A stretch of DNA of 64,000 bases from a phage. The DNA is taken from the sequence record PQ478073.1, one strand, 5' to 3'. Of the stretch, positions 1-31,636 are shown one piece after another; the first letter of the stretch is position 1; the number at the start of each line of letters is the position of its first letter. Under the pieces are notes generated by a model that worked only from the letters and a program-made list of their open reading frames with translations, was not told the origin of the DNA and made no database searches. The position numbers and the translations under genes are program-made.

Positions 1-735
1 TCCCATGATGAGCGTCGCCTTTGTGAAATTTTGCATGGAACTCGTGATACCGAAAAGAAAACAATTTGGACAGATAATTACCTAAATCAAGGCGTTGCTC
101 TTGGTTATACTGGTGGTGAATTGGGTCCAGTGTATGGTAAGCAATGGCGTGAATGGGAAGATTATAAATTTAGTTCCAGTACTGAAGAAATTCAAGAATT
201 AAAAGATAAAGGATACAAAGTTATCGATTATACTGGTTCACATGGTGTTGTTATGAAACGTACAACTGACCAATTACAAGAACTAATCAAAGGTATAAAG
301 TCCGATCCATATGGTCGTCGCCACATTCTAAGTGCATGGAACGTTGGTGAGCTTGATGATATGACGTTGCCACCTTGTCATAGCTTTGTGCAATTTTGTG
401 TAGTACAAGGGAAACTAAGCTGCATTCTACATCAACGCTCCGCTGATCTATTTTTAGGAGTTCCATTTAATATCAGTAGTTACTCACTACTAACTCATAT
501 GATTGCACAAATTACTGGTTTAGATGTTGGTGAATTTATTTGGAATGGTGGTGATTGTCACATTTATAAAAACCACGTTGAACAAGTAAAAGAACAACTA
601 CAGCGAAAACCTCGTGAATTACCTGAATTGTGGCTTGATCCTACAATTACTAATATTGAAGATTTCACAATGGATTCTTTCAAATTAGTGAATTACAACC
701 CAATGCCAACAATTAAAGCACCGATGGCTGTATAA
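1..735 (+). CDS. td: thymidylate synthase (T4 Td-like), 5'-truncated by window edge
   Basis: Frame 1 is open from base 1 (track ORF 31 starts at an internal TTG). Motifs seen: [28 protein letters not shown] (catalytic Cys), [21 protein letters not shown]. Stop TAA 733-735. Confidence 0.93.
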
Positions 736-742
736 ACGAAAA

Positions 743-769
743 GGGAGAACTAATGTTCTCCCTTTTTTT
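743..769. terminator. intrinsic terminator, probably bidirectional, between td and the fibre gene
   Basis: GGGAGAAC-taat-GTTCTCCC hairpin 743-762 followed by T7 run 763-769; A-run upstream gives a weaker T-run on the minus strand. Confidence 0.7.
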
Positions 770-770
770 A

Positions 771-2735
771 TTATCTAATTGTTACCAATGTTCTTCCGTC
801 GAAACGTACATCAGGAGTTGAAGGTATACTAAACACTACGTTAGTGCCGTTAAACGTAACGCTATCGACCTCAACACGAGTATAGACACCAGGACTAACC
901 TGTTCCTGTATCTCTGCTGTGACGATGTTTGAGGCTGTTACAGTAAGGGTGTAGTAGTTACCACTTAATACCCAAGATGAAATGGTAAAAGCATCGGTTC
1001 TCACTGAACCTGAACCAATCGGAACCCATTGACCTTGAACTTTTTGCATTGAAGTACGCTCGGTATTTGAGTATGCAATCATACCATCAACGCCAACAGA
1101 GTTATCAATAGTTGCTAGTACTGGTAATTGGATACCATATCTATTAAAACGTGTTCTTATAGTTCCATTATCATAGATACTTACATCAGCATAATTACCC
1201 ATTGATAGTTTTAAATCAGAACTAACTAATTGGATTGTACTTTGATTAGTAGTACTTTCTAATGTAATTATACCATTAGCTAATAGATTTATATTTTTAA
1301 ATTTATTAGTTGTTCCATTGAAATTAGTGTTTGCTGTAAACGTACTAACTCCATTAACTGTAATTGTATCTGATGCAGCATCGCCTAATATGGTATTACC
1401 TTGAATGTTCAAATTACCACTAGCAGTGATATTACTAGCTGATGTATCACCAGTCAATGTGCTTGTACCATCAACCACAATATTACCATGAAACGCACTT
1501 TCACCATTTTTAAATTCAACTTGTACTTTATTCATTGAACTAAATGAAATAATATTACTACTAGCACTTAGTCCAACATTAGTATTGGTTGCATTATCAA
1601 ATCTTAGTACTGGGGTTGATGCTGGGGTTGAGGTTGTTTGGTATAATGTTAATGTTGAATTATTAATTCTAATACGTTCAGTTCCCGCAGTACTGAAACC
1701 AATTGCATCATCTGCTGGATGAAACATACCAGTATTAGCGTCTGACCATTTTGCAGGATCATTACCTGGGTTATTGGTTGGATCAAATGGATTGTTATTA
1801 AATGTCAATGCTGGTGCTGCTGCACTACCATACACCACACCAAAACGCCCTGAGCCGCTTGTTCCATCATTATACATGGAATCACCAGTTCTACGTAAAC
1901 ATTCAATCACAACGTTATCTATGGATGTTTGTACGGTTCCTGCGTTCGTTCTAAATTGACGATGGTTTGCAATCATTACTGTATTGTCATATAATACAGA
2001 AGCAGCAGAAATGCTTGTTCTTGACTGGCGTAGACGTATGTTTTTATCTTCAGTTATAATGATCCAATCACCATCTGATAGTGCGGTTTGGTTCATTGGA
2101 ACGCCTGAAGCAAATGGTTTGGTTAAGTCAGCATCTGTTGCTAAATTTTTAAGACCATCATGACCAGTACTAGGTATGGAAGCAGTAATAATTCTAGCAA
2201 ATGCATAAGTGACAAGTTTTGCACCTGAAACATTTGGATTTGAATCAACATAATAAAGGATTTCAATCCAGTTTCCCTGACCAGTTGGGTTGGTTGGTGT
2301 AAATGTAACCGGACTTGTTTGTGGGTTATTTGCTTCAAAGTGTGCTTGTGCTGCATCCATAATACCACGAACAACATAATAATCACCATTAAGTGATGCT
2401 GAAGGTGCAGGGAGCGGTGTTTGTGCCAAAGGTGGATCGATGTCGTCAGGGATTGGATTATATGTACCTACGAACTGCAAACCACTTGTTACCGAATCTG
2501 GTAATTGTGAAGTAAGGAGTTTGCCATTGGCATCTAAGTTTGCAAAACGACGATATGCCATTGTACCATCTTCAAAATCCAAAACACCTTCAAATGATTT
2601 CCATTCTTTATTGTACCTAATCATCCCTGAACGTATTACATCAGCGGTTTCTTTAGATGGTGCTTTCGGTAACTCTAAAAAAGATTTACTATCTATGATA
2701 ACACCACCATCACCTCTAATTCGATTTATACTCAT
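771..2735 (-). CDS. putative tail fibre / receptor-binding protein (654 aa)
   Basis: ATG at 2735 with GAGGA SD; Thr/Asn/Gly/Ser-rich beta-type composition typical of fibres; last gene of the minus-strand fibre cluster. Function is inferred from composition and context. Confidence 0.45.
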   Translation of the reverse strand: MSINRIRGDGGVIIDSKSFLELPKAPSKETADVIRSGMIRYNKEWKSFEGVLDFEDGTMAYRRFANLDANGKLLTSQLPDSVTSGLQFVGTYNPIPDDIDPPLAQTPLPAPSASLNGDYYVVRGIMDAAQAHFEANNPQTSPVTFTPTNPTGQGNWIEILYYVDSNPNVSGAKLVTYAFARIITASIPSTGHDGLKNLATDADLTKPFASGVPMNQTALSDGDWIIITEDKNIRLRQSRTSISAASVLYDNTVMIANHRQFRTNAGTVQTSIDNVVIECLRRTGDSMYNDGTSGSGRFGVVYGSAAAPALTFNNNPFDPTNNPGNDPAKWSDANTGMFHPADDAIGFSTAGTERIRINNSTLTLYQTTSTPASTPVLRFDNATNTNVGLSASSNIISFSSMNKVQVEFKNGESAFHGNIVVDGTSTLTGDTSASNITASGNLNIQGNTILGDAASDTITVNGVSTFTANTNFNGTTNKFKNINLLANGIITLESTTNQSTIQLVSSDLKLSMGNYADVSIYDNGTIRTRFNRYGIQLPVLATIDNSVGVDGMIAYSNTERTSMQKVQGQWVPIGSGSVRTDAFTISSWVLSGNYYTLTVTASNIVTAEIQEQVSPGVYTRVEVDSVTFNGTNVVFSIPSTPDVRFDGRTLVTIR

Positions 2736-2817
2736 TAAATATTTCCTCAGAATAGATTATATATGATGTATTTATTTTAGTTAAAAGAAAAGGCCAACCA
2801 TAGTTGACCTTATAATA

Positions 2818-3597
2818 TTAACGAGTACGTTCAGGAATTTCAATACCTTCATATACCCAAGTTGCAGCTTGTTGTGCTTTATAAATTGCATCAGGATCTA
2901 AATCATCAACTGCATCAATTGCAGCACACTGACGATCACATTCTGCAAACAACTGTTCTACCATAGCAAATGCTTCAGTATATAGTTGTGTCATTTCAGC
3001 AGCAGATAGTTTAACTATTGCATCATCGAGAAATATAGAGACAGTTTCAGCACCAGAAGTTACTTGAGTATAATAGTTAAGTAACATTTGACGACCAGCT
3101 AGATCAGTACTATAACGTTGTCCTTTAAACAAATAACCACGATTAATACGTTCACCACGTTCTGCTACAGTTCTGGATTTTAAATCATATTTCACATCAG
3201 TAATATTCATATCAACGTAATGGTATGTTTTCAGTACTGTTAGTGCTTTATACTCTGATGTAGCTTCTTCAATAAATTCAACAACTGGTTGATTATCATC
3301 TTTTAACTTAATAAACTCCAATGGTTGTTCAATAGCATTAACATTGCCAATATTTTTATACACTAACCACCAAAAACCTTCTTCTTTTCTAACAGCATCA
3401 TTAGGTTCCACTGGAGAACCATCTTTACTTGAAATACCATAAAGAGTTCTAATATCACTATAAAGATAACGATAGGTTTGTGGATCTTCTGGTGTAGCAC
3501 CTGGACGTTCTTTCAATCCTTTTACACCAATTGGGTTAGAAATAATGCTACCCAATTCATAATTTTCTTTTGAATTTCCTTTCACATATGTGAACAT
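2818..3597 (-). CDS. hypothetical protein within fibre module (259 aa)
   Basis: ATG at 3597 with GAGGT SD; ordinary composition; product unknown. Confidence 0.5.
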   Translation of the reverse strand: MFTYVKGNSKENYELGSIISNPIGVKGLKERPGATPEDPQTYRYLYSDIRTLYGISSKDGSPVEPNDAVRKEEGFWWLVYKNIGNVNAIEQPLEFIKLKDDNQPVVEFIEEATSEYKALTVLKTYHYVDMNITDVKYDLKSRTVAERGERINRGYLFKGQRYSTDLAGRQMLLNYYTQVTSGAETVSIFLDDAIVKLSAAEMTQLYTEAFAMVEQLFAECDRQCAAIDAVDDLDPDAIYKAQQAATWVYEGIEIPERTR

Positions 3598-3620
3598 ATA
3601 ACTACCTCACTTGTTATGAT

Positions 3621-3660
3621 GGTGTCACCCAAAAGAGTGACACCTTTATTATTATAATTA
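3621..3660 (-). promoter_or_regulatory. intercistronic hairpin between giant fibre gene and downstream ORF
   Basis: 8-bp inverted repeat GGTGTCAC / GTGACACC (3621-3628, 3637-3644) with 8-nt loop. On the minus strand it is not followed by a T-run, so it is probably not a terminator. Confidence 0.3.
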
Positions 3661-6600
3661 TTAAGCTGTACGTTGTGCAATAAACATATCTACAACTGGA
3701 CTTACACCATCATAAATGACTTGGTAAATGGTCACAGAGTTTGCAGTTTTGTTTAGAGTGCCATCAACAACCGCATAAGTACCATCAGTAGTAAAGTTTC
3801 TGTTACCAGTTGCATCTTGTTTCACATAAATGTATACTGAAGATGCTTTACCACCACCGATTAGACCAGTGATTGGTGCTAGAGTTGTATCTTGATCAAG
3901 GGTGATAAAGTATACGTTGCTAGTACCATCAGGAGTCCAAGTACCAGTTGGTGCAATAACAGAAGAAGTTACTTGATTAGGAATAACATCATATTTTTTA
4001 GTAGTTACAGTAGTAGTAGTTAAATCAGCATTAGTTGTTGTTAGTTGACCAGTAACTGTTACATTTTTGTCAAACACAGCATTTTCTTTGAAAGAAGATG
4101 TTGCATTAACAGTTAATGTATCAGCAGCAGCGTCACCTAGAACAACACTACCATTTGCAGTCATTAAACCAGTAACAGTTAAAGTACCACCTACGGTTGC
4201 TGCACCAGTTACAGATGCACTAGCAAGAGTAGCAGCACCAGAAGTAGTAATTGTAGTTACAGAAGTAGCAGCAAGGGTAGCAGTACCAGTTGCAGAAATA
4301 TCACCACCGACAGTTAGGTTACCAGAAGTAATACCAACAGTTCCTGTGATATTCGCACCACTTGACATAGTAACTGCACCACCGAATGAACCAGTAGTAG
4401 TTACTTCAAGAGTGTTACCTTTTAGTAAACCAGTTGCAGTAATGCTTGTTCCTGCGGTAATACTAGTACCAGCAGCAACACTGTTAGTTGCAGTTAAAGA
4501 TTTAACAGCCACATCAGAGTTAGCTTGGTTTAGCGTTGCGTTTAGAACACCAGTTACTGTAAAGTTACCATTGTTAACTACGTTACCATTGATGGTTAAG
4601 TTGTTGTTTTGTGAACCAACATCACCAATAGTTGCAGATTTAGAAATCAATTCTGCACCAGATGTGATATTACCTGCTGCACTAATAGTATCAGCAGCAA
4701 CAACAGCATATGGTTCGATAGTTTGACCACTAACATCGATATCAGCGTTGATACCACCGTCTACACGCAAGGAACCTGCGATGTAAGTGTTAGGGAAAAT
4801 CTGAACTGTTTCTGGTTGATCACCAATTTTTGTACCAATTACAACGTTCGCACCAGTTTTAACTGCACCAGATGTTGTTAGTGAACCTAAAGTTGCTTCA
4901 CCAACTACACCTAATGTACCACCTACGGTTGCGTTATTAGTAACTGCCAAAGCTGTTCCTTCACCGTTAAGGGTGATAGATGGAGCAGTCGCTGCACCAG
5001 TTACGCCTAATGTACCACCTACGGTTGCGTTGCCATCAGAATGTAGTGTAGTAGCTACAGAAAGACTGTTTGCAACTACATCAGTACTTGCAAGATCCAA
5101 TGCACCTGGTGTTAATGTACCAGTAATGTTAACATTATTACCAAAGGTTGCTGCACCAGTAACATCTAGAGTTGTACTAAATGTACCAGAAGTTGCAGAA
5201 ACAGCACCAGAATCTAGTGAACCTACAGTTGCTTTTCCAGTTACACCTAGTGTACCACCTACAGTTGCGTCGGTTGTTACACCTAATGTACCAGTACTAA
5301 CTTCTTGAGCGGTTGCTTTACCAGATGCAGTAATAGTTGAAGTAGATACTCCCCCAGTTAATGTGCTTGCACCAGTTACTGCTAAAGTTGTTGCTGCTGT
5401 TACGCTGTTCACGTTAAGGTCAGCACCAGCTAGGTTCAAACCACCTTCAGGAATAAATTCACCCTTCACTGTTAGTTTTTGTACTGTACTATCACCAGTG
5501 ACTGCCAGTGTAGATGCAGTTAAACCACCATTCATACTAGCTGCACCAGTTACACCGAGTGTAGTGGTTACAACAGCACTATTAAGAGTAGCAGTGTCGG
5601 AAATATTAGCACTTGGTGCAGCAATAGTCCCAGCATCAACTTGAATACCACCAGTAACAACTTGGATACCACCAGCATTAACAGTGAGTTTACCAGCAGT
5701 GTTTAAGGTATTTGATACAGTTGTAGCACCAGATAGTGTACTTGTACCAGTAACACTTAGATTACCAGAAATTATTGGGCTACCAGTTACATTACCAGTT
5801 GTTAGAATTAAATCAGTACCTACAGTTGTAGAACCAGTACTTTCTAATGTTACACCAACAATGTTAGAAGAACTTAGGTTAATTGAACCTGTTACAGTCA
5901 AGTCACCATTAACAGTTGCGTTACCTAGTGAATTTAATGATTTCACTGAAACATCAGTAGTGCTAAGGTCAATTACACCCGCAGTTAATGTACCAGATAC
6001 AGCCAAATCACCAGTGATTGCAGTGTTTTTAGTAATAGAAACACTTTCAGCAGCAGAAGTTAGAGAACCAACAGTCAAAGCACCGCCAACAGTGGCGTTA
6101 TTAGTAACGTTAAGTGCAGTACCAACACCAGATAGTGTTGCAGACGCACCATTAACAGCACCAGAGATATTTGCATTTGCAGCAGATACATCACCTGAAA
6201 CAACCGCAGTTGTTGCATTTACTGTAGTTGCAGTAATATCAGTACTTTGTACTTTTGGTAGTAGGTTAACACCTTCAGCACTACTAACAGTGATGATTCC
6301 AGCACTTGTTAGAGATTTTACTGATACATCAGCAGCAGATAGGTCTACAGTACCAGAAACAACAAGGTCACCACCAATATTTGCACCAGCAGTTGTTGTG
6401 ATTGATTTAGCATTAACATCAGTTGTTGTTAAATCAATAGCACCTGGTGTTACTGTACCAGAAACTGTTAGGTCACCAGTAATAGATGTATTATTAGCAA
6501 TAGATACACCCGCAGTATTACCAATGGTTGGAACTTCAATAGAAACTGCTGTAACTTTACCAGAAGATGTTACATCAGCAACAGAAGTTGCACCAGTTAC

Positions 6601-9186
6601 ATTCAAATTAGTAATATTCGCAGTAGTAGAACCTAGAGTTGCAATTGTCGCATCAGTACTTTGTAGTTTAGGTAGAACACTACTAATAGTTGATTCATTA
6701 CTAACGATTGCACCAGTACTGGTTAGAGATTTAACTGTTACATCAGCAGCAGTTAGGTCTACTGTACCGTTAACGGTTAAGTTTCCACCAATTGTTGCAC
6801 CAGCAGTTGTTGTGATTGATTTAGCGTTAACATCAGTTGATGCTAGGTCGATAGATCCAGGAATCACAGCACCACTAACAGTTAAGTCACCAGTGATAGA
6901 AGTATTATTACCAATTGTAACACCAGTTACATTGGAAATAGATGGAGTAACTAGAGATGCAGTTGTTGTTTCACCACTTACATTTAAAGTTGTTCCGACT
7001 ACAACATCAGCACTTGTACGAACAGATGCTAGATTAGATGGACCTGTTACCGCAAGTTCAGTTGCATTAACAGTATTAATTGTTGCAGTAGTACTATTAA
7101 GTACTGGTAAAACGTTGGCATTAACCAAATCATTACTTTTAACAATACCAGAAGTTGTTACAGATTTAACGTTAAGATCAGCGGCTGATAAATCAAATGA
7201 CCCTTGAACAACTAAATCACCACCAATTGTTGCACCAGCAGTTGTTGTAATAGAGTTTGCATTAATATCAGTAGTGCTTAGATCTAAAGAACCTACAGTC
7301 AAACTACCAGTAATATCAACGTTTTCAGTAAAGTTAGTATTTCCAGTAATAGTTGGAGCAGAAAGACTTGTAGCACTAATAGTTGTACCATTAATAGTTC
7401 CACCACTTAGTGTACCACTTGCAGTAATAGTTGGAGCACTTACTTCAGTGGAAGCAGTAATAGATGGTGCAGATACAGATGTTGTACCAGTAATAACACC
7501 AGCATTAATAGAACCAGCAGATAATGCACCAGATAGATTTGCAGTAGTACCTGCAATATCACCAGTAACGGTTAGTTTAGCACCTACGGTAGTATTTCCA
7601 GTACTTTCAAGAGTTGCACCTTTCACGTTTGCAGCAGCTACAACAGAGTTAGGAGTTAAGTTTTGACCACTAACATCAACAGTTAGGCCAGTAACAGTAC
7701 CAGTGAAATCAACATCATTAAGAATAGTTTTACCACCAACTTGTAGGAATGGTGTACCTGGGGCTTGTGTTTCATTACCAGTGATAGTTAGGTAATCTAG
7801 TTTGTTAAGACCGTTACCAGTAATACCATAGGTAGATAGTGAAGCATTACCAAAAGTTGCGGTTTTTAGAACATTCAATGTTGCAGGTGAAACAACTTCT
7901 GATTGAACTTCGTTAGGTAAAATAACAGTTGGGCGTTGGCCTGGTGCTGTATATCCAAATCCTAATTTAACTGCTGCATCTTGACTGTTTTGACCCAAGC
8001 TAATGGATTTGAAAGAAGCAGTACTATTAAAGCCAGTGATATTTGAACCTAAAGTTACTGCACCAGTTAGTGAAGATGTACCAGTAACATTCAATGAAAC
8101 TGCATTAATATCGTCAAGTTGGAATGTACCACCAAGTAGACCAGAAACGTTAATGTTATTAAAGTTTGCGGTTCCTGTACTTTCAATATTAGGAATAGTT
8201 GCTGTGCCAGTAACTTCAAAGTCAGCAACTTTGGTTTTACCCTTTTGAACTTCCAATAGTGGGGTGTCTGGGGATTGAGTATTGTTACCAGATACAGTTA
8301 GGTAATCTAGTTTGTTAAGACCATTACCTGTAATACCATAAGAAGAAAGAGAAGCGTTACCAAATGTTGCAGATGTCAAAACTGTTAAATTTGCAGGTGA
8401 CATTAATTCAGATTGAATTTCGTTTTGAAGAACTACAGTAGGACGTTTACCTGGAGCACTGTAAGGGAAGCTTAGTCTGAAGGTTTGAGATTCAGAGTTA
8501 GAACCAATACGAATATCTTTGAATGTAGCAGTACTGTTAATACCAGTTACGTTTGCACCAAAAGTTACTGCACCTTGTTGGTTAGATGCACCAGAAACGT
8601 TCAATGTTACTGCATTCAAATCTGATAGATTAAATTGTCCACCAAGTGTACCACTAATAGTTACATCGTTAAATGTAGCAGTACCAGTACTACTAATATT
8701 GGTTGTACTTACATTAGTAATTTCTGCGGTATTAGCAGTAATTTTATCAAATGCAGCAGTAGTACCAACATCAGCAGTAATATTACCTTTAAATGCTGTT
8801 GTTTCAGCAACTTCTAAGTTTTTAACTTTAGTTGCTTGTAGAGTGGTTGTACCAGCAGTTTGTGTAAAATCAGAACCAACTGATACAGTACCGTTAAAGG
8901 TAGCGTTTGAATTAATTGTTGCTGTATCAGACCCGACAACTGCACTACCGATTGTAGTATTACCCTCAACACCAAGACCACCAGAAAGTGTTGCTTTGCC
9001 ACCAACATCTAAAGTAGATGTAATGTTGGCAGTTGATGATTCAATGGCAGTAAAAGTTGCATTTGCAAAAGTTACAGTACCATTTACAGTTAGGTTATTA
9101 TTGAAAACAGCATTTCCTTTGACTAAAAGATCCTTACCAACCGTACCAGCACCAGTAATATCTAAGTCAGTTTTTATTGAGTACAT
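3661..9186 (-). CDS. giant repetitive fibre/adhesin-like structural protein (1841 aa)
   Basis: ATG 9186 with GGAGGG SD; extreme T/G/S/N/V/A composition and internal tandem duplications at protein and DNA level; lies in the fibre cluster. Confidence 0.6.
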   Translation of the reverse strand: MYSIKTDLDITGAGTVGKDLLVKGNAVFNNNLTVNGTVTFANATFTAIESSTANITSTLDVGGKATLSGGLGVEGNTTIGSAVVGSDTATINSNATFNGTVSVGSDFTQTAGTTTLQATKVKNLEVAETTAFKGNITADVGTTAAFDKITANTAEITNVSTTNISSTGTATFNDVTISGTLGGQFNLSDLNAVTLNVSGASNQQGAVTFGANVTGINSTATFKDIRIGSNSESQTFRLSFPYSAPGKRPTVVLQNEIQSELMSPANLTVLTSATFGNASLSSYGITGNGLNKLDYLTVSGNNTQSPDTPLLEVQKGKTKVADFEVTGTATIPNIESTGTANFNNINVSGLLGGTFQLDDINAVSLNVTGTSSLTGAVTLGSNITGFNSTASFKSISLGQNSQDAAVKLGFGYTAPGQRPTVILPNEVQSEVVSPATLNVLKTATFGNASLSTYGITGNGLNKLDYLTITGNETQAPGTPFLQVGGKTILNDVDFTGTVTGLTVDVSGQNLTPNSVVAAANVKGATLESTGNTTVGAKLTVTGDIAGTTANLSGALSAGSINAGVITGTTSVSAPSITASTEVSAPTITASGTLSGGTINGTTISATSLSAPTITGNTNFTENVDITGSLTVGSLDLSTTDINANSITTTAGATIGGDLVVQGSFDLSAADLNVKSVTTSGIVKSNDLVNANVLPVLNSTTATINTVNATELAVTGPSNLASVRTSADVVVGTTLNVSGETTTASLVTPSISNVTGVTIGNNTSITGDLTVSGAVIPGSIDLASTDVNAKSITTTAGATIGGNLTVNGTVDLTAADVTVKSLTSTGAIVSNESTISSVLPKLQSTDATIATLGSTTANITNLNVTGATSVADVTSSGKVTAVSIEVPTIGNTAGVSIANNTSITGDLTVSGTVTPGAIDLTTTDVNAKSITTTAGANIGGDLVVSGTVDLSAADVSVKSLTSAGIITVSSAEGVNLLPKVQSTDITATTVNATTAVVSGDVSAANANISGAVNGASATLSGVGTALNVTNNATVGGALTVGSLTSAAESVSITKNTAITGDLAVSGTLTAGVIDLSTTDVSVKSLNSLGNATVNGDLTVTGSINLSSSNIVGVTLESTGSTTVGTDLILTTGNVTGSPIISGNLSVTGTSTLSGATTVSNTLNTAGKLTVNAGGIQVVTGGIQVDAGTIAAPSANISDTATLNSAVVTTTLGVTGAASMNGGLTASTLAVTGDSTVQKLTVKGEFIPEGGLNLAGADLNVNSVTAATTLAVTGASTLTGGVSTSTITASGKATAQEVSTGTLGVTTDATVGGTLGVTGKATVGSLDSGAVSATSGTFSTTLDVTGAATFGNNVNITGTLTPGALDLASTDVVANSLSVATTLHSDGNATVGGTLGVTGAATAPSITLNGEGTALAVTNNATVGGTLGVVGEATLGSLTTSGAVKTGANVVIGTKIGDQPETVQIFPNTYIAGSLRVDGGINADIDVSGQTIEPYAVVAADTISAAGNITSGAELISKSATIGDVGSQNNNLTINGNVVNNGNFTVTGVLNATLNQANSDVAVKSLTATNSVAAGTSITAGTSITATGLLKGNTLEVTTTGSFGGAVTMSSGANITGTVGITSGNLTVGGDISATGTATLAATSVTTITTSGAATLASASVTGAATVGGTLTVTGLMTANGSVVLGDAAADTLTVNATSSFKENAVFDKNVTVTGQLTTTNADLTTTTVTTKKYDVIPNQVTSSVIAPTGTWTPDGTSNVYFITLDQDTTLAPITGLIGGGKASSVYIYVKQDATGNRNFTTDGTYAVVDGTLNKTANSVTIYQVIYDGVSPVVDMFIAQRTA
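5900..7300 (-). repeat. in-frame tandem repeats, period ~420 bp (~140 aa), 3-4 copies
   Basis: Protein repeats NNTSITGDLTVSG...IDL(A/T)(S/T)TDVNAKSITTTAGA(T/N)IGG(D/N)L; near-identical DNA blocks at ~6370-6510, ~6780-6925 and ~7215-7290. Boundaries approximate. Confidence 0.6.
7650..8710 (-). repeat. in-frame tandem duplication, period ~525 bp (~175 aa), 2 copies
   Basis: Protein repeats ...FPYSAPGKRPTVVLQNEIQSE...GNASLSSYGITGNGLNKLDYLT... vs ...GYTAPGQRPTVILPNEVQSE...GNASLSTYGITGNGLNKLDYLT...; DNA blocks e.g. 7786-7820 vs 8290-8325. Boundaries approximate. Confidence 0.6.
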
Positions 9187-9221
9187 TTATACCCTCCATT
9201 ATAACCTTGTTAATATGTATA

Positions 9222-9228
9222 TATTTAG
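9222..9228 (-). promoter_or_regulatory. candidate late promoter (CTAAATA) for giant fibre gene
   Basis: Minus-strand CTAAATA ~35 nt upstream of ATG 9186 and just downstream of a terminator; resembles the T4-type late -10 element TATAAATA. Confidence 0.35.
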
Positions 9229-9280
9229 TTTTATTATGCTGTTATCCAACAATTAATACATTATTTGACAAAAGCAAATA

Positions 9281-9319
9281 TAATAAAAAAACCAGACTTA
9301 TTTAGAACAAAGTCTGGTT
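9281..9319 (-). terminator. intrinsic terminator (minus strand) after RBP gene
   Basis: Perfect 10-bp stem AACCAGACTT / AAGTCTGGTT (9290-9299, 9310-9319) with minus-strand T-run (complement of 9281-9289), immediately after stop at 9326-9328. Confidence 0.7.
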
Positions 9320-9325
9320 AATTTT

Positions 9326-10222
9326 TTACTTACCGGAGATAACAATCTTACCACTGAAAGAAATATCAGAAGTGAAGATTACATCACCAGTACTACTAAT
9401 TTGTGTATCAGTCACTACCAACTCGAATGGAGATGACGCAACACTCCCAGGTGTTTTATTTGCATAAATTGAAATATACAAATTATCTGGGGTTTGATTG
9501 TGTTCGGATGCTGGAATAGTGATTGTGAAATCACCAGCACTAGAAACCCAATCTGCTTGGTTTACTAATTTACTATAAGGTACTGTCATTGTGGTTGCTC
9601 CTATAATGTTTACTTTAACACTTGCATAATCTGTGATTTGACCAATCACATCAATTGTTATATCCCCAATACCACTAACTGTTACTGTGGTTTGGAATAC
9701 TGATTCCAATGCAACATTACCTGGGTCACCTTGTAGTTGAATCATAATATCAGAACCTCTACCATGAACTGATTCTGGTAGTGTGTAAGTATAATGATCA
9801 GTAGTATCTGGTACTAATGTAAATGCAGAAACAGGAACTATTTCAGTAGTTACATATGAGCTATCAGTTCCAGGTGAGCTACCTTTAAATGGTTTCCAAA
9901 TACCAAGATCTTTAATATAAATTTGAAGAACATTAGTACTATCAACCAAAAAGTAAACGTCACCATCTAGACCAATAGAATCGGATGGTGCTGTTGTTCC
10001 ACGTAAGATACCAGAACTACCACCACCACTGTGTGCGTTTAAATATCCCAATGTAACCAAGTGTGTGTTTGCAGTTGGTTCACCTGCTGAAATTGGAAGA
10101 AGTTGTGTTCCTGAGTAGTTTTGAATTTGCACAACACTACCATTTGTGGTAATCTGTGCACCATTCTTCCCAAGAATGAAGGACTTCTTCATGGTTCCTT
10201 CTAAATTAGAAAAAACTGCCAT
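9326..10222 (-). CDS. receptor-binding protein with conserved N-terminal anchor (298 aa)
   Basis: N-terminus MAVFSNLEGTMKKSFILGKNG is near-identical to that of the adjacent tailspike, with a divergent C-terminus; AAGGAG SD. Confidence 0.55.
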   Translation of the reverse strand: MAVFSNLEGTMKKSFILGKNGAQITTNGSVVQIQNYSGTQLLPISAGEPTANTHLVTLGYLNAHSGGGSSGILRGTTAPSDSIGLDGDVYFLVDSTNVLQIYIKDLGIWKPFKGSSPGTDSSYVTTEIVPVSAFTLVPDTTDHYTYTLPESVHGRGSDIMIQLQGDPGNVALESVFQTTVTVSGIGDITIDVIGQITDYASVKVNIIGATTMTVPYSKLVNQADWVSSAGDFTITIPASEHNQTPDNLYISIYANKTPGSVASSPFELVVTDTQISSTGDVIFTSDISFSGKIVISGK

Positions 10223-21628: not shown

Positions 21629-24600
21629 TTATTTAACTAATAATATATTTTTAATATCATTACCACTAACTTGTAGACTATCAGTGTATACTGAAAGATC
21701 TATAGTGTAACTATTTTGTGTGTAACGTTTTAACATATCATAATTACCTAAATTAATTCCATTGAATGAATATGTAGTATTAAGTTTAAAATCATGTTCT
21801 GCACTATACATTACTCCACGGAGTAAATTATTTGCATTTCTAACTTCAACTTTTTCATATCCAATCGATATAATATCATTTATGTTCGCGGCAGAACCGG
21901 ATAAAACATTATTTCTAATACTATAAGGACTTATTGATTTAGGTTGAGAAACATAGGTTGTATTTTCTTCACTAATGGTTGTGATGTTAGTAACCGTACC
22001 ACCAACAACACCGATGTACATACCGTCAACCATTGGATAACCATAAACCCATATACCTTCATTATTTCTAAACGGTTGAATAACACTTGAATCATATTCA
22101 ATAACGTTGATTTCTAAACTATCAGTCATTTTAGTTCTTGCTAATTCACTAAGAACTCCCGCACCAGTAATTGGTAGGTTATAACCGTTGTCGATAGTAA
22201 TTCCATCAACATCAAATATTTCGTTAGAGATTATCCAAACGTCAACGTCATCTGGTGTTATTCCGTCATTGTACTTACCACCATTTAAAGTAGTATCGTA
22301 GAAAACATCATAATTAATTACATCAATTGTGTAATTTCTATTTTGTTCGTACAATTTGATACCATTCTTCACAAATTCTGGGTCAGCAAATGTTCTAACA
22401 CGAACAATGTTCAATGCAAGAGGCTGTACTGGCTCATTTTGTTGTGCAAGAGTGATATTATCATAACGGAGAACTGCACCAGTACTCTCATCAATCAATT
22501 CAATCGTTTCTTTACCTGTATTTCTTACAGTGAATAGGATCGGAGTTGTATTGTTTTTGATGTTAGATACACGCAAGATTGTTTCCCATGTGTGATTTTG
22601 ATATCTCACAAAATCTTCACCATCAGGAGTGAAAATCATCACCTTATCACCATCAGATAGGTCATTGTCAACTATTTCTGCTTCAGTTAAGCTATTAATA
22701 GATCTCACACGATAGAAATATTTTTCATCAAACTTCGATGTTGTTTTATTAATATCATTTTCAATCTTAGCATATGAAGGAATACTAACAATTGCTTCTG
22801 TATGTTTATATGGATTGATAATTGCCATACCTTCAGTTTGATATCTGCTGTTATCACGTAATTGTACAAGAGATACATTGTCAAACCCATATCCATCAAC
22901 TGTAAATCTAATTTGACCAACATCACGCCCAGAAGGGTTTATGTCAGATATATCCACAATATAAGGATCAACTTCATCATCTTTAACTTCCCATTTTATT
23001 GAAGAAGTTTGAGATTCTAATGCTAGGTTATCAAATGCATTCATATCATTGAAGTACTTAGCTTCAGTAATACTATCAAGTATATATTGATAATCTGAAT
23101 ACATTGGGTTATTTTGATCTAGTGGTAAATCATCTAGATTTATTTCAGCTAGTTCAATCATTTCACCATTTGTGATAAAATAATCTTCCATGAAATCATC
23201 AATACTTTGTTCATCAGGTATACTTTGATATACACCGTTAACATTTAAGTAAACATATTTTCGTGGAATCATTGTAATTGCATAGATATCAATTGGGGTT
23301 TTACTAAGAATCTCTTCAGCTTTTTCGTACTTATCAGTAGCGTCTTTGTCGAATAACCCTCTCATACCTGCTAATACGTGAATAGCATCAGTATAGAAAC
23401 GGGTATCACCACCGACTTCATCATAACGATAAACATATACACCATACTCAACTTCAAGTTTAACTTTTACTTCATAGTCTGATGCGTCAGGATTTTTATC
23501 TTTAATTAATGAAATATATTTTTGATACAGTTCACTGCTTATTTCAAAATATCCATAGTTATAATCATTACTAGAAGAAAAGCCTAATGGAAGTCTAGTA
23601 CTAGGATTGTCATTATAAGTAAGTCCACTAAATCCACAACCAACTTCATCGTGAATTTTCTCATCACTTATATCTTTATAAAGTTTCAAACGGTTTGCCA
23701 ATGTGTTATACTGAACATATTGTCTAAGGTCAGTAAACATATCGTTCTGCGTTGATTCTTTATAAACACGCTCCAATGTAGCAGTAAATTCATCAGTTGC
23801 TTCTAAATCTTCCGCATGGTCTTTATACCACTGGTTAACACCATATGCTGTTCCTAATGTTACATCCAATTCTGGATAGTAGATTTGCATTTGATAAGCA
23901 ATAAGAAGATCGAAAGTTTCTTCACTATATTCTGGGAAAGAATATATATAACGTTGTAATTCATAGTTACTAACAGCATCCTTTTCATTGGATTGATATT
24001 TGTTATTAACACTTACTAATTCATTTATGCTTGCTAAATCTGCATTTGGTTTACATTGAATGTTATCGTAATGCATAATAATATCAATTTCTTGGAATCT
24101 TCTATTTGGTGTAATGAAATCACTTGGTAGTGAACCTACCTGTTCCCATTTTTGGGTAATTTCATTAAATTGAGCGTACTCATAATCCCAAATATCTTTT
24201 TCAGTTTTGACCCAAGAACCGTCAACGAAAATATATCCATTAGGATCTAAATCATTACACAGACCTTTTATTAAATCATCATCAGATGTCTTTTGCTCTA
24301 TTTGTGAACGAATTTTAGTTCTATAAGGTTTAACTTCTTCAAAATATTCAACAATTTGATTAATCAAATTATCGTTTGAATAGTTTTGAACTAATGATTG
24401 TTCCAAACCAACAATATAGATATATGATGTTTTAAATACCCAATCCACAACACTTTGTTCAACATGTACATATTTGACCATATCAAAAACAATTTCGCTT
24501 TGATGTAAATCGAAAGAATTTTTGAGTAAAGCTAGTGCTTTACGAACGTTGATTTCACGATTGCTTAGTGAACCATTATCATTATGAACACTATAATCTG

Positions 24601-27600
24601 CGTAAAGCATATCATTGAGTTCAACTGTACTGTTTTCACGACCAATCGCTTTCCAATAAATTGAATCGCGTGATTGTGATTTAATATACAATGTCCAAAT
24701 GTTTTCACTATCGGTAACTCTGATAATATCTCCAACTTGGTAGTTTTTAGTATTAGCATCTTCTAAGCTTGACTCTTGTGTATAAGTCGTGTTACTATCA
24801 TACCCAACATCATACCAATCAGCATATGACCAGTACTGAGTCATGTCCAATGAAGTTCCTAGTGATTCAACATAATCAGATTGTTTAATCATTTTATGTT
24901 GTCCCTCACCTTTGTTCTCTAACGTTATAGTAACAACACTACCCGCGTTTGCTGGACTATTCATTAACTGAATATATCCATTTTCGTCGAAGTGAATAAA
25001 ATAAACAGCACTAGAAGTTAATGGATTTGGTAGATATCCACTAGTACTTAAAATAACAGCGTCATTTTCTTTAAATTTATCACTTTCAACTGCAATAACT
25101 AATTCATTATTGTAAGACAATACACGGAAAGAAACTTCATTCGGGTTAACTTCAGTGGTTTTAACATTAAACACATCTTCCATAACAACACTATTAGTGG
25201 TTATGTTTTGTGACCTATAATAATTATTAGCACTTTCTACAAAGTTTCTACGAGCTTCTATAACATTTTGGAACCAAGTTTTGTTTGAACCTAAACCGTT
25301 ATCAACATCTGGATATAATAAATTAATCACAGAACCTGATTCAGTTGTTTCTTGACCAATTAGTGAGTTCCACATTGAATCCCAAATTAGTGGGTTAAAG
25401 TTATAGCTGTCACCTTCTTTACATAGTTGATACTGGTCATGTTTAACAACTTCAGTACTATCCATGTAATAAGAAACAGTTAAAATACTGGTATCATCAT
25501 TCACTTTAAATTGCATATTACTAAGAATAAACGAGTTTTCATTGATTGGAGCGAACCAAGGAATGTTTAGCTGTGTTGGATCTTTAATAATACGAGCAAT
25601 GTCAGTACATGATTTTGTTCTGGTATGTAGTGGTGGTACATAAATTGTATCACGTACCCAGAAATAGTATTTTGTCACATAACTATCAGTTGAACTATCA
25701 TATTCCAAAAATGTACTATAATTATCTTCAAGTGCAGTTCCACTTGGTAGATACATAGTATTATTTTTGTTTTTCTTAGCAACATCTTTACAGTATTTGT
25801 CCCAGTTATATGGCTCAACTGGTGAACAAACCCACTCTAACACATCAATTGTACTATGTGGTAATAAACGACCCCAGTTGTAACGTTTGTATTCATTGGT
25901 TGCATCAATGTCAACATTACCGTCTGCGTCATAAATTGCACGAGTATAATCCAAATAAAATGCAGTGCTAGTGTTCCACCATACTTGACCAACTTTATCA
26001 GCACCCCAAGCCTGGATTAACTCTCCATTACTATTATACTGTGCAGGATCAACTGGTGAAGTATATGTTACGTTTTGCATAGCCGCACCTGGAATAACAC
26101 CATTAATTGGGTCATAAACGTTTAGATATAGCTCAGTAATGTTAGTACGTTCATCATATGTCGTTGGACGATCAAATAAAGTACTTTGTGGTGCTTTAAA
26201 ACTATATTTCTTGTCAATGTAAGCTTGACGTTCATCAGTACTGGCAAAACGTGATACATAACGATACAAACGTGGACGTGTATCTGGATCAGTAAATTCA
26301 ATATCAATAGAAGTGTCAAATGGAACTACCATAACTTTAGGATCAGAACCAGCAGTATAATATTGACTTTCTACTGTTAAAGTATCTGGCATAAAGTTAG
26401 TTTCATCAACAAAATAATAATAATCACCATCTTCAAGTGGTACATTATCAGTTAAAGTTACTTTACAAAATTGTTCAGCATACACATCGGTATTTTCAAT
26501 AGGTGTTATAGAAACCATTTGAACATTAGTATCAACCAATTCAAAAATGTTCCACAAACCATTACCGTCTTTAAACATCCACACAGATTCAGGATTTTCA
26601 CCTTTACCATTAGTATAAGTTATGCGGTCATTATATGCAGTACTGAAATCTTTTGTTGTGTACGATACTTCATCCAATGTTACTGGACCAATATCTGGAA
26701 GTTGGATATTTTCACTTCTTCCACTACGCATTGGGAATGAGAACTTACCATTTGGACGTGTAATCCAACGAGGATCTTTACCCTGCTCACCGAAGTATAC
26801 AATATGATTACCATTACCATTTGAAGTTGCATTTACATCAAAAGAAACCATTTGAGGTTGTTGTTTAAATTGGTCATTGATTAGTTTAAATTGAAGGTTT
26901 TTCTTACCATCAATATTACCATATGTACCAATTTTAAATGCCCATTCTTGTAATGCTTTATATTCATCAGTGTCATATGATTTAGAAACACGAAGGACAC
27001 GTTCTAAAACTTGGTTAGTACCTTTATCGTGAATGAATCCTTTATAGAAATCAACACGACTAACATCACTACTAATCATACGCTGTAGATAATCACGAGA
27101 TTGATAACCAATCAAATGGTTTGACAACTCTTGTAATTGTACATCACTTACTGGAGTTTCACTATCATAATAATGTTGGAAATCCGACACTAATTTTTCA
27201 AATGATGGTAGTGTTCCAGCTTCCAAGATAATAAATCCAGGAGCTTGTAGGCGACCAGTCCATGAACCAGTAATATATCCATACATTTTAATTAGTTCTT
27301 GAATAGAACCATATGTTGGCTGATAAATGTAATCACCAAAAATAGTTTTATCATCAAAAATAACAGCATGTTCATATGAACACAAACTTAAACGAATCAA
27401 TGCAATGCGTTTATTAGATTCTAAAGTTCTAACAGTGAAGATATTTCCAATACGAGAAGTTTCAATTTCATATTGGCGAATACCTTGGTTATTATCATCA
27501 AGTAATGACCATACACCACCATTATTTTGCGTAATAGATTGTACTGAACCAAAGTCTGCCCCAAATTTAGCGTTTGCAGCACTTGGGGTACAAGAAATAA

Positions 27601-30600
27601 ATTCACCAGTTACTAGAGAATTCTGACTCCAGATCACGAAATCTTTAGCAATAGTGTTCCAATCTTGTTGAGCACCACTATCATTTACATCTTCAAAAAT
27701 CCAACCATGTTCTTTAAGATATTCACCATATCCACAAATAAAAGTATAAACTTCTTGGTAACTATTGAAAACTTTACCATATTCAATTGAAGCTTCAGAC
27801 TTCCATTCATTATAATGAACAACATTACGGTTTTCCAATTTAAGAGTTACTTTTCTACCATTTTTTACGGGAAGTTTATATTTAAATTTAGCACCAACTA
27901 GATCATATCCATCAATCTGATATGCACTACCATTCCAAGTAATTTTGATCGCACTCATTTGCTCATCACGGATATTATTAGAACGAACAAGACCAATGGT
28001 TTGGTTTTCTTGTGAAATAAGACCGAAAGATTTAGCATTGAATGTTAGCTGATCTGCTTTAGTAAATCCTCCAATTTTATGACCAACATTTATATAAGAA
28101 GAACGAACTACATCCCCATACTTGGTGGTAATATTTTTATTTTGATACATCAAATGGTCACTTACAAACATTTGATAACCAATTGTTCTTGTGCTATTTT
28201 CACCATGAACTACTGTATTTTTATCAAAATTAATACGCTTACGTGTATCACCATAAAGGAATTGTGAACCATCAGTGAATACTTCTTTTAAGTTATCATT
28301 GCGGGTATCCCAGAAATAGTTAGCAAATTGTGCTGGTTTAGCTTTATACAAAAGCATCATTTGGTCATATGCAAACAATGTAGTGTTCATGTATGTAAAT
28401 TCCATGTCACCCATATCACCATATGTCCAAGGTTCTGCTCTATGATTTAAAGATCCAGACACTAAACCTAAAATTTCAGGTGCAATATATTCAACCACAC
28501 AAATATCAATACCAGAAGATGTTTTATTTCCAGTTTTTGTAATTTTGAATGGCTGTACACCAAATCTTTTATATTTGTCATATTGACCACGACGATCACC
28601 AAATAAAATAGTTCCAGTACTGCTATCGCCAATACTTCCGTCAATATCCCAAAGACCACTAGGAACTAAATCACCTTGCTCATTCATAACAAGTGCTTCA
28701 TATACATATACAACATCACTATCACGTTCACCAACTTGAACAGCCGTTGGTTCGTATTCTTGGTTCCACCAAGTTGGACGTTGTGTAAAGCCAAACATTT
28801 CCCACGGATGGGTAGCTGGGCGATATGTACCATATTGGTCAGTGTAAATGGCACGCCATGAACCACGTGCAGGAATTTCAGTACTTTGACCATTAACTAC
28901 ATAATAAGTGCCAGTATAGTTCCAAGTTCTCCAATTGTTAGGATCATAATCATGTGTACTATTACTGATACCATTAGTTGCGGTGAAGTTAATGTATCCA
29001 CGTAGTAATAATGTTTGTTTCTCTTCAGCACTATATTCAGTTTTAGTGAAATATGGTGTAGGGAAAAGGTCATCACTATTCAATACTGGTACGTAATCAA
29101 CATCTTTGAATTTATTATCAATACTATTAAAAATTCTATTTTCTAATTCATATACAACATCATCCATTTTATCAACACCATTGATAACACGGTATGCTTT
29201 GGAAATAATACCAGTATGACTGATGTTATAACAGCTTGGTTTACTACCAGCAGTGAGGAATGTCGCTTTTTCTGGTACATATGCTTGAAGAATACCTAAG
29301 AACTGTGGTGTTGGTGGTATAAATGCACGAATGAATCCAGAAGTACTTCCAACATTATCATAATAGAATGGGAATGAACTATCACGTCCCATATTAATAG
29401 TAGTTAAAATTGCATCAACAATGTTTGCAGCACTATTTTGTAAAAAGTCTGATGGATTTTCATCATACATACGAAGCATTTGTGTATTAAATTTATTAAT
29501 GAATCTAAAATATTCAGATTGCATAAACATAGTTGCTTCAAATAAATCAATATCTTCATTTGCAGTATGTGCCATCAATGGAAGCATAGATGCTTCATTT
29601 TGGATAATTTTAGTACCTACGCCATTATTAACCAATCCTTTAGCCAAACGTTCTTCATAGTCATTGAAATCATCAGAAGAACCACGTGTAATGTTCTTTT
29701 GAATAATATCCTGAAAATGTAAAGTGTAGTCACCTTGGTTAATGTATATAATATTAGAATTATATGGGTTATTTTGTAGGTTGATTGGAACTTCATAAGC
29801 ACCTAATTCTTTATCAGGTGTTACAGTACTGCTATAAGTTCTGATTTGAATAACAGAATCTTCATCCAATTCTACAGTACTATCTAGAGTGATGCTTTGT
29901 ACTTGACCTTTTGAAACATTTTTGGTATATTTGGACACATCAACACCATCAACCACAACTTCAATAATATCAGAATCATTATCTAAAACTTTTTGTGCCA
30001 ATTCGAATGTATGGTCATATTTTACAATCTGAACACCATCACCAGTAATTGGATGCCAATCTAGATAAGTTTCTCGGTCAGCTTTATAGTACTGATATGT
30101 TCTATCAACTTCAATAACATATGCATACATACCATCAACTGGTTCTTTAAAAACTTCCATATCATAAACAGTACTGAATACACGATACATATCAGTACGT
30201 TTGACTTGTGGAGTTTGTTTTACAAATTGTTTAGAGTACTCTTCTGAACGAACCCAATCGGTTTGAAGATTCATTTCATTATTTTCATCAATAATGTTAT
30301 AATAGTATAAACCATCAATTTCAACTTCTTTTCCAAGATGGTCATAGGTATAACGTTGGGATTGTAAAAAGTTTTCATAAATGTAATAATTATAATCACC
30401 AAGTTCAATGTTATATCCATATACACTATCAGTTGCATAGTTGTAATTTATTTTAAAACCAAACAACTCTGAACCTTTAAAGTTACTTGATGGATATGTA
30501 GTACTGTTGTCAAGTTTGATACCATTACGATCATAAAGTTGGAATTTAGGGAATACGTTAACACTAGTTTTTGATTGTGCACGAACCCACAAAGAACCAT

Positions 30601-31600: not shown

Positions 31601-31636
31601 TTTTGGACTCCATATAATTCGTTCATTCATTTGATT

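Follow-up and report, generated by a model that had tools for sequence, protein, structure and literature searches.

The gene at positions 3661-9186 (- strand) of the phage DNA analysed here very probably encodes a fibre shaft built of ancient, diverged, in-frame module duplications, the number of which changes occasionally by unequal homologous recombination. The DNA is a stretch of 64,000 nucleotides from sequence record PQ478073.1, referred to below at its full length as the window. We propose that the region would form the shaft of a virion fibre protein in an Asteriusvirus-type (121Q/PBECO4-like) jumbo coliphage. An N-terminal part of ~178 residues would be followed by two B modules of 170 aa, four A modules of ~140-155 aa, two related C modules of 112 aa and a C-terminal domain. 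The repeats would serve as structural building blocks, each copy being kept as a protein by purifying selection. Crossovers would fall either within the core of a module, its short and best-conserved part, or between the short repeats that flank it, and each would add or remove exactly one module, in frame.

Identity and neighbourhood of the fibre gene

The list of open reading frames and their translations gives a single product of 1841 aa for 3661-9186 (- strand), with an intact reading frame. Over its full length, the first 25 kb of the window is ~95% identical at the nucleotide level to the Asteriusvirus jumbo coliphages SP27, phAPEC6, G17 and 121Q. The fibre gene aligns with 121Q gp571 across all 1841 aa with zero gaps (86.9% nt and 92.2% aa identity), and phAPEC6 gp256 was checked and found to be the same 5526-nt gene. 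The protein matches PHROG 4549 'tail fiber protein' (E 1.5e-223), and its similarity to the gp571/gp256 group extends over the full length. Judged by these matches, the gene is orthologous to 121Q gp571 and phAPEC6 gp256 and belongs to the Asteriusvirus fibre group.

The gene order around it is that of 121Q genes 568-574: thymidylate synthase and two structural genes come first, then the fibre gene, followed by another structural gene and a colanic-acid-degradation-like protein. PHROG and family matches identify the neighbours as tail or virion proteins, along with a DUF4376 protein and a pectate-lyase-like one of the 'colanic acid degradation' kind; in the family-library scan, the genes downstream of the fibre encode a DUF4376 protein of 259 aa and a structural protein of 654 aa. 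The similarity with 121Q gp571 thus includes the length, the neighbours and the module order (2 B, 4 A, C0, C1). The two differ in that the window gene is strongly diverged at synonymous sites from ~aa 150 onwards (dS ~0.5), while the flanking genes are 97-100% identical. On this comparison, we consider the window gene to be a different allele of the 121Q gp571 gene.

The structural proteome in Table 1 of the phAPEC6 report lists gp256 as a tail fibre protein of 180.38 kDa, detected with 15 unique peptides by mass spectrometry of virions (PMC7247149). Because an orthologue was found in phAPEC6 virions according to this table, the product of the fibre gene would be a virion fibre protein. It could be located at the baseplate or be one of the 'hairy' sheath fibres.

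Two families of in-frame modules

The original prediction, an earlier reading of this DNA, had described two families of large in-frame tandem repeats in the fibre gene, at 5900-8710. We scanned the gene against itself at in-frame shifts only, recording the best identity over 240 nt, with 20 codon shuffles as the control. Peaks were obtained at offsets of 414 nt (0.77), 510 nt (0.72), 435 nt (0.67), 849 nt (0.65) and 465 nt (0.61), whereas the maxima of the shuffles averaged 0.487 and reached 0.504 at most. Self-blastn of the gene also returned off-diagonal matches, of 68.3% over 650 nt (E 1e-56) and 71.8% over 394 nt (E 7e-54). As whole-protein self-blastp reported the identity match only, the units were instead compared with one another by blastp, which gave E 6e-68 for the two B units and E 1e-11 to 4e-37 for pairs of A units. 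Both families are therefore real, since the self-comparison signal lies far above background (0.77 against at most 0.504), and they lie roughly where they had been placed: family A, aligned as four units, at 5569-7347 and family B, aligned as two 510-nt units, at 7633-8652, both on the - strand.

From the N-terminus, the first ~150 aa of the protein (8737-9186, - strand) are nearly invariant relative to 121Q, with dS 0.03 and dN 0, whereas the remainder of the gene has a dS of about 0.3-0.9. This part may be the conserved attachment part of the fibre. Module B1 follows at 8143-8652 (- strand; aa 179-348, 510 nt) and is 59% identical in amino acids and 63-67% in nucleotides to B2 (blastp E 6e-68, as above). 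Module B2, at 7633-8142 (- strand; aa 349-518, 510 nt), corresponds to residues 180-352 of the long tail fibre of phage phiTE, with a profile E-value of 1.1e-23 for the stretch. The predicted family of ~525 bp with two copies was thus right in copy number, the unit length being 510 nt.

A linker between B2 and A1 (7348-7632, - strand; aa 519-613) contains a SAP(S/T)IT mini-repeat, at which Tandem Repeats Finder reports a period-15 array (7347-7399). The A units come next on the same strand. A1 (6913-7347; aa 614-758, 435 nt) was delimited in the four-unit alignment and matches A2 with a blastp E-value of 2.9e-32; A2 (6499-6912; aa 759-896, 414 nt) was delimited by unit alignment and A3 (6034-6498; aa 897-1051, 465 nt) by unit alignment and unit blastp. 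A2 and A3 form the closest pair, at 58% aa and 67% nt identity and 77% over the best 240 nt. The last unit, A4 (5569-6033; aa 1052-1206, 465 nt), is degenerate, with 30-40% aa identity to A1-A3 and blastp E-values of 1e-11 to 3e-17, and it is the last A unit in every relative examined (61-85% identity). A family of ~420 bp in three to four copies had been proposed; we find four units of 435, 414, 465 and 465 nt, of which the fourth is weak.

A third module, C1, lies at 4888-5223 (- strand; aa 1322-1433, 336 nt), outside the range 5900-8710 of the original prediction, where it went unmentioned. It is present in a single copy here, and UB and CRJP21 carry a 112-aa insertion at the site. Its relatives within the protein, by blastp, are the preceding C0 unit (E 6.7e-14) and A2 (E 3.8e-9). 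Two direct repeats of 56 nt bracket the module on the - strand, the upstream copy at 5215-5270 being 87.5% identical to the downstream copy at 4879-4934, from which it is offset by 336 nt. The protein ends in a C-terminal domain (aa ~1656-1838; 3672-4220, - strand) that matches residues 611-792 of the phiTE fibre chain 9cuy_g by phmmer (E 1.6e-13 for the stretch). With two B units, four A units and one C1, the window carries the common short allele.

A different picture emerged for the statement that copies share high DNA identity, which did not hold. Over whole units, the copies within the gene are 50-67% identical in nucleotides and 30-59% in amino acids. No exact run shared by two places in the gene is longer than 31 nt (6795-6825 and 6381-6411), and Tandem Repeats Finder, run on 3000-10000, called four short arrays only, with periods of 15-36 nt, and no large repeat. 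By all three measures the gene is not a tandem array of near-identical DNA.

Relatives in structure and in sequence families

Scans of the whole protein and of its pieces against Pfam, NCBIfam and PHROG gave nothing above threshold except PHROG 4549. Family scans gave sub-threshold hints of bactofilin-like or left-handed beta-helix matches at both ends of the protein, and PF26209, precomputed on homologues, was not reproduced in the Pfam scan of the fibre protein. AlphaFold2 monomer models were poor, both for B1-B2 (alignment of 22 sequences; pLDDT 58.6, pTM 0.27) and for A2-A3 (14 sequences; pLDDT 61.7, pTM 0.33). Both models, of too low a quality for fold searches, contain strands only, at a low-confidence pLDDT of about 60; the repeat units of the fibre are 112-170 aa long.

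Sequence and profile searches of the PDB found a single relative, from Pectobacterium phage phiTE: its long tail fibre (PDB 9CUY/9MJN chain g, 793 aa), with a phmmer E-value of 8e-29 for the whole protein and a profile E-value of 1.1e-38. The fibre has the organization of the phiTE type, namely a B-type module after an N-terminal domain of ~175 aa together with a common C-terminal domain. In both proteins the B-type module starts near residue 180, and they share the C-terminal domain of ~180 aa and the recurring motif G-x-(I/L/V)-D-(L/V)-S-x-x-D-(I/L). However, the phiTE fibre, not half the length of the window protein, carries a single B module, lacks an A array and shows no detectable similarity to the N-terminal 178 aa of the window protein; aa 1-178 had no significant match in the PDB. 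In phiTE chain g only residues 14-171 have been modelled experimentally, so that it offers no structure for the shared parts (PMC11972413).

The B module itself is restricted in its distribution. Among 1.84 billion representative proteins, a profile of single B units picked up only 52 clusters, and in nearly all 52 the module starts at residue ~170-190. In terms of these profile matches, the B module is rare, fibre-specific and sited directly after the N-terminal part.

Like T4 gp34, the window product is a long fibre protein with several copies of a repeated structural motif (PMC5537660), and phages are known to mix, match and duplicate such fibre domains (PMC5537660). The gp34 repeats are mixed alpha-beta and about 33-47 aa long, whereas the modules of the window are 112-170 aa and predicted to be helix-free in low-confidence models. 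Homology to gp34 was not detected: no gp34 chain appeared among the PDB matches with E up to 1, and no Pfam or NCBIfam family exceeded threshold. Several GenBank records use the gp34-type label 'long tail fiber proximal subunit'. A further parallel is given by the BACON repeats of crAss-like phages, which in the available portion of PMC6949934 are in-frame tandem domain repeats whose number differs between related phages; there, the domain and the protein are both unrelated to those of the fibre described here. The passages searched in the Asteriusvirus genome papers on fEgEco12 and phAPEC6 yielded no description of these fibre repeats.

Age and constraint of the modules

To the extent that alignments date them, the repeats are old, diverged duplications of protein modules held by selection. 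Compared with 121Q, the fibre gene has an omega of 0.03-0.14 although dS is about 0.5, which indicates that each copy is maintained as a protein by purifying selection. Orthologous units are closer than paralogous ones: B1 of the window is 88% identical in nucleotides to B1 of 121Q, and B1 and B2 within the window are 63% identical. Concerted evolution or gene conversion between units was considered and is ruled out by this pattern, as orthologous units are far closer to each other than paralogous units are. Distant homologues, at 31-36% identity, already possess a pair of B units and between two and four A units, and unit number and order are the same in the window and in 121Q across a dS of about 0.5.

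The original prediction also held that the repeats are recombination substrates. For the window copies this is not supported, as they are not highly identical and would be poor substrates. No rearrangement was observed in the window isolate and rearrangement is rare, in view of the at most 31 identical bases between copies in the window and of the constant copy number across that synonymous distance. The module number is usually stable, since in 12 records (11 phages) the alignment covers exactly 5526 nt as a single piece, with no length change.

Gain and loss of modules among relatives

The idea that module number could vary between isolates was, for its part, confirmed by comparison across isolates: B, A and C1 counts all differ among relatives. 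The differences are whole-module, in-frame insertions or deletions (+170, +112 and about +145 aa), as in an array of variable copy number. In a tblastn survey of 37 phage records, most fibre genes have two B units; three were found in JP4, CRJP21, JNE01 and Turkey5, where the split of B units per gene in Turkey5 is inferred from the analogous case of JNE01. JNE01 and both fEgEco12 paralogues have an A array of three units, one fewer than in the window. A4 is orthologous everywhere, and orthology among A1-A3 blurs with distance. A link between module number and host serotype was rejected, as two-B and three-B alleles both occur in phages isolated on O157 strains.

CRJP21 offers the clearest view of such a change. 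Its protein is 91.6% identical to that of the window, and the only large differences are the addition of 170 aa (a B unit) and of 112 aa (a C unit), apart from 6 aa. The third B unit is found in CRJP21 and JP4, and we analysed the units in CRJP21. The extra unit, in the middle, is of the B2 type over its 5' 286 nt and of the B1 type over the remainder. A model with one breakpoint, at nt 286-300 within the conserved ATFGNAS core, accounts for 177 of the 215 informative sites. By its site pattern, this B2/B1 chimera is what an unequal crossover between B2 and B1 would be expected to produce. The chimeric unit is ~7% diverged from its candidate parents, which suggests that the event is old or that it involved another lineage.

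Other gains followed different paths. The third B unit of JNE01 arose by a separate route, as a duplicate of B1 whose copies are 84% identical in amino acids. C1 is duplicated in tandem in UB and CRJP21, the copies being 88-98% identical in nucleotides, and it is this module that lies between the two 56-nt repeats in the window. Junctions of the kind left by unequal crossover are thus present in the chimeric B unit of CRJP21 and in the C1 duplication of UB and CRJP21.

Could the duplications instead be frozen relics that no longer recombine, with differences in copy number spread by the exchange of whole fibre alleles between phages? The low identity of the window units (50-67% nt, with a longest exact run of 31 nt) and the identical architecture of the window and 121Q despite a dS of about 0.5 speak for this possibility. 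So does the finding that the fibre region is a mosaic block relative to its flanks, which indicates that allele exchange occurs. On the other hand, the middle B unit of CRJP21 is a single-breakpoint chimera of its two neighbouring unit types, and the C1 copies of UB and CRJP21 are adjacent and 88-98% identical. Both are expected products of intragenic unequal exchange, for which allele import alone is insufficient. We therefore hold the frozen-relic explanation to be improbable and favour old module duplications that occasionally change in number by unequal recombination.

Reliability of the assembled repeats

Repeats of this size had been flagged as an assembly hazard, a concern that our data do not bear out. 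It is extremely unlikely that the repeats are an artefact of assembly, through a collapse or expansion of the copy number; no supporting point was found beyond the caution in the original prediction itself. The units are too diverged to confuse an assembler, and because no exact repeat exceeds 31 nt, ordinary reads can be placed uniquely. Moreover, the reading frame is intact, and the architecture is reproduced in many independent assemblies: the 12 records (11 phages) mentioned above align over all 5526 nt in one piece with unchanged length, and 121Q, the sole unit-by-unit comparison, has the same unit order and number. The repeats call for no special assembly precaution.

Open reading frames on the opposite strand

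Five long ORFs on the + strand lie inside the gene and share a single antisense frame, where only 29 of 1842 codons are stops. The longest encodes 507 aa (5684-7207, + strand). The original prediction had called the antisense ORFs spurious and attributed them to the repeats. We agree with the first part; as to the cause, codon shuffling, which destroys the repeats, leaves about 32 stops in the antisense frame. Because shuffles without repeats stay stop-poor, the scarcity of stops is explained by amino-acid composition (62% of the fibre residues are Thr, Gly, Ala, Val or Ser), and the repeats are not responsible.

We weighed the alternative that the ORF at 5684-7207 (+ strand) is a real overlapping gene. 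Its observed open stretch of 520 codons exceeds the maximum of 517 in 500 codon shuffles, and PBECO4 records annotate three similar antisense ORFs as CDS. When the shuffles were synonymous and so kept the fibre protein, however, the longest open stretch averaged 456 codons against the 520 observed (P = 0.24). 121Q has four additional stops within the 507-aa ORF and, although the same stop-poor antisense frame is present in every relative, its open stretch varies between 281 and 548 codons. There is next to no chance, in our estimate, that this ORF is a gene. For annotation, this means one intact fibre gene of 1841 aa, and the five + strand ORFs within it should stay uncalled, unlike in the PBECO4 record.

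Implications for fibre evolution in Asteriusvirus

By analogy, the modules would determine how long the fibre is and how far it reaches; the fibre itself would be all-beta and probably trimeric. The notion of a trimeric beta-shaft with a fixed length per module comes from the known behaviour of fibres such as T4 gp34 (PMC5537660), and we infer the trimeric state, the length-setting role and the position of the fibre in the virion alike. A more ambitious reading is that module number acts as an adaptive length dial that is used repeatedly, with the conserved cores as crossover sites, fixed increments that match the thickness of the host capsule or O-antigen, and selection for B expansions. We consider this doubtful. 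If it were true, the independent expansions from two to three B units in the CRJP21/JP4 and JNE01/Turkey5 lineages would have been selected and would not be neutral accidents.

That tail-fibre shafts are modular, carry duplications and recombine is well established, and our results change no general view in this respect. The modular-fibre feature is real but ordinary, being the shaft part of a jumbo-phage fibre gene that was already known. For the gene family, variation of module number by recombination is right, and it is now documented by a chimeric unit mapped at the sequence level. The map of B, A and C units could guide the engineering of fibre length or the comparison of host range among Asteriusvirus isolates. 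As a worked example, the chimeric unit with its mapped breakpoint shows how the fibres of jumbo phages may gain modules.

Annotation and genomic context of the fibre gene

The linker joining the last B module of the fibre protein to the first A module (B2-A1) carries a period-15 mini-repeat at 7347-7399, which encodes SAP(S/T)IT-type pentapeptide-like repeats. Nearly all homologues of this protein (P0001-P0025) have a precomputed Pfam match to PF26209, and two of them additionally to PF26208; neither family was returned by a local Pfam scan of the window protein, P0001, P0003, P0006 and P0025. In the records of the related phage PBECO4 (KC295538.1 / NC_027364.1), three antisense ORFs within the fibre gene (317-4993) are annotated as hypothetical proteins, the fibre CDS itself is absent from the annotation, and the gene is also split by the ends of the linear record.

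In several relatives (Ec-M-J, fEgEco12 and JNE01), a paralogue of the fibre gene lies immediately upstream of it; one example is fEgEco12 g317 (1644 aa, with two B and three A units). The window lacks such a paralogue; its fibre gene is directly followed by a 298-aa ORF (9326-10222). Farther along, a 3333-aa ORF occupies 21629-31630 on the minus strand; phAPEC6 gp245, a listed 382-kDa virion protein, is similar to it in size.

Divergence from phage 121Q

Nucleotide identity to 121Q is only 75–95% over positions ~2100-8700, compared with 97–100% on both flanks. This diverged block, with a dS of ~0.5 and an omega of 0.03–0.14 relative to 121Q, comprises the fibre from residue ~150 to 1841, a 259-aa DUF4376 protein (2818-3597, minus strand) and the N-terminal part of a 654-aa structural protein (gene at 771-2735). 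The block resembles the result of a cassette-type exchange of alleles, located downstream of the conserved N-terminal ~150 residues of the fibre.

The 259-aa protein is encoded immediately downstream of the fibre gene; its DUF4376 domain was detected with an E value of 1.4e-9, and its match to a tail-fibre PHROG is weak. Within its gene, ~3001-3300 shares 79% nucleotide identity with 121Q and is among the most diverged stretches. The DUF4376 protein may co-vary with the distal end of the fibre.
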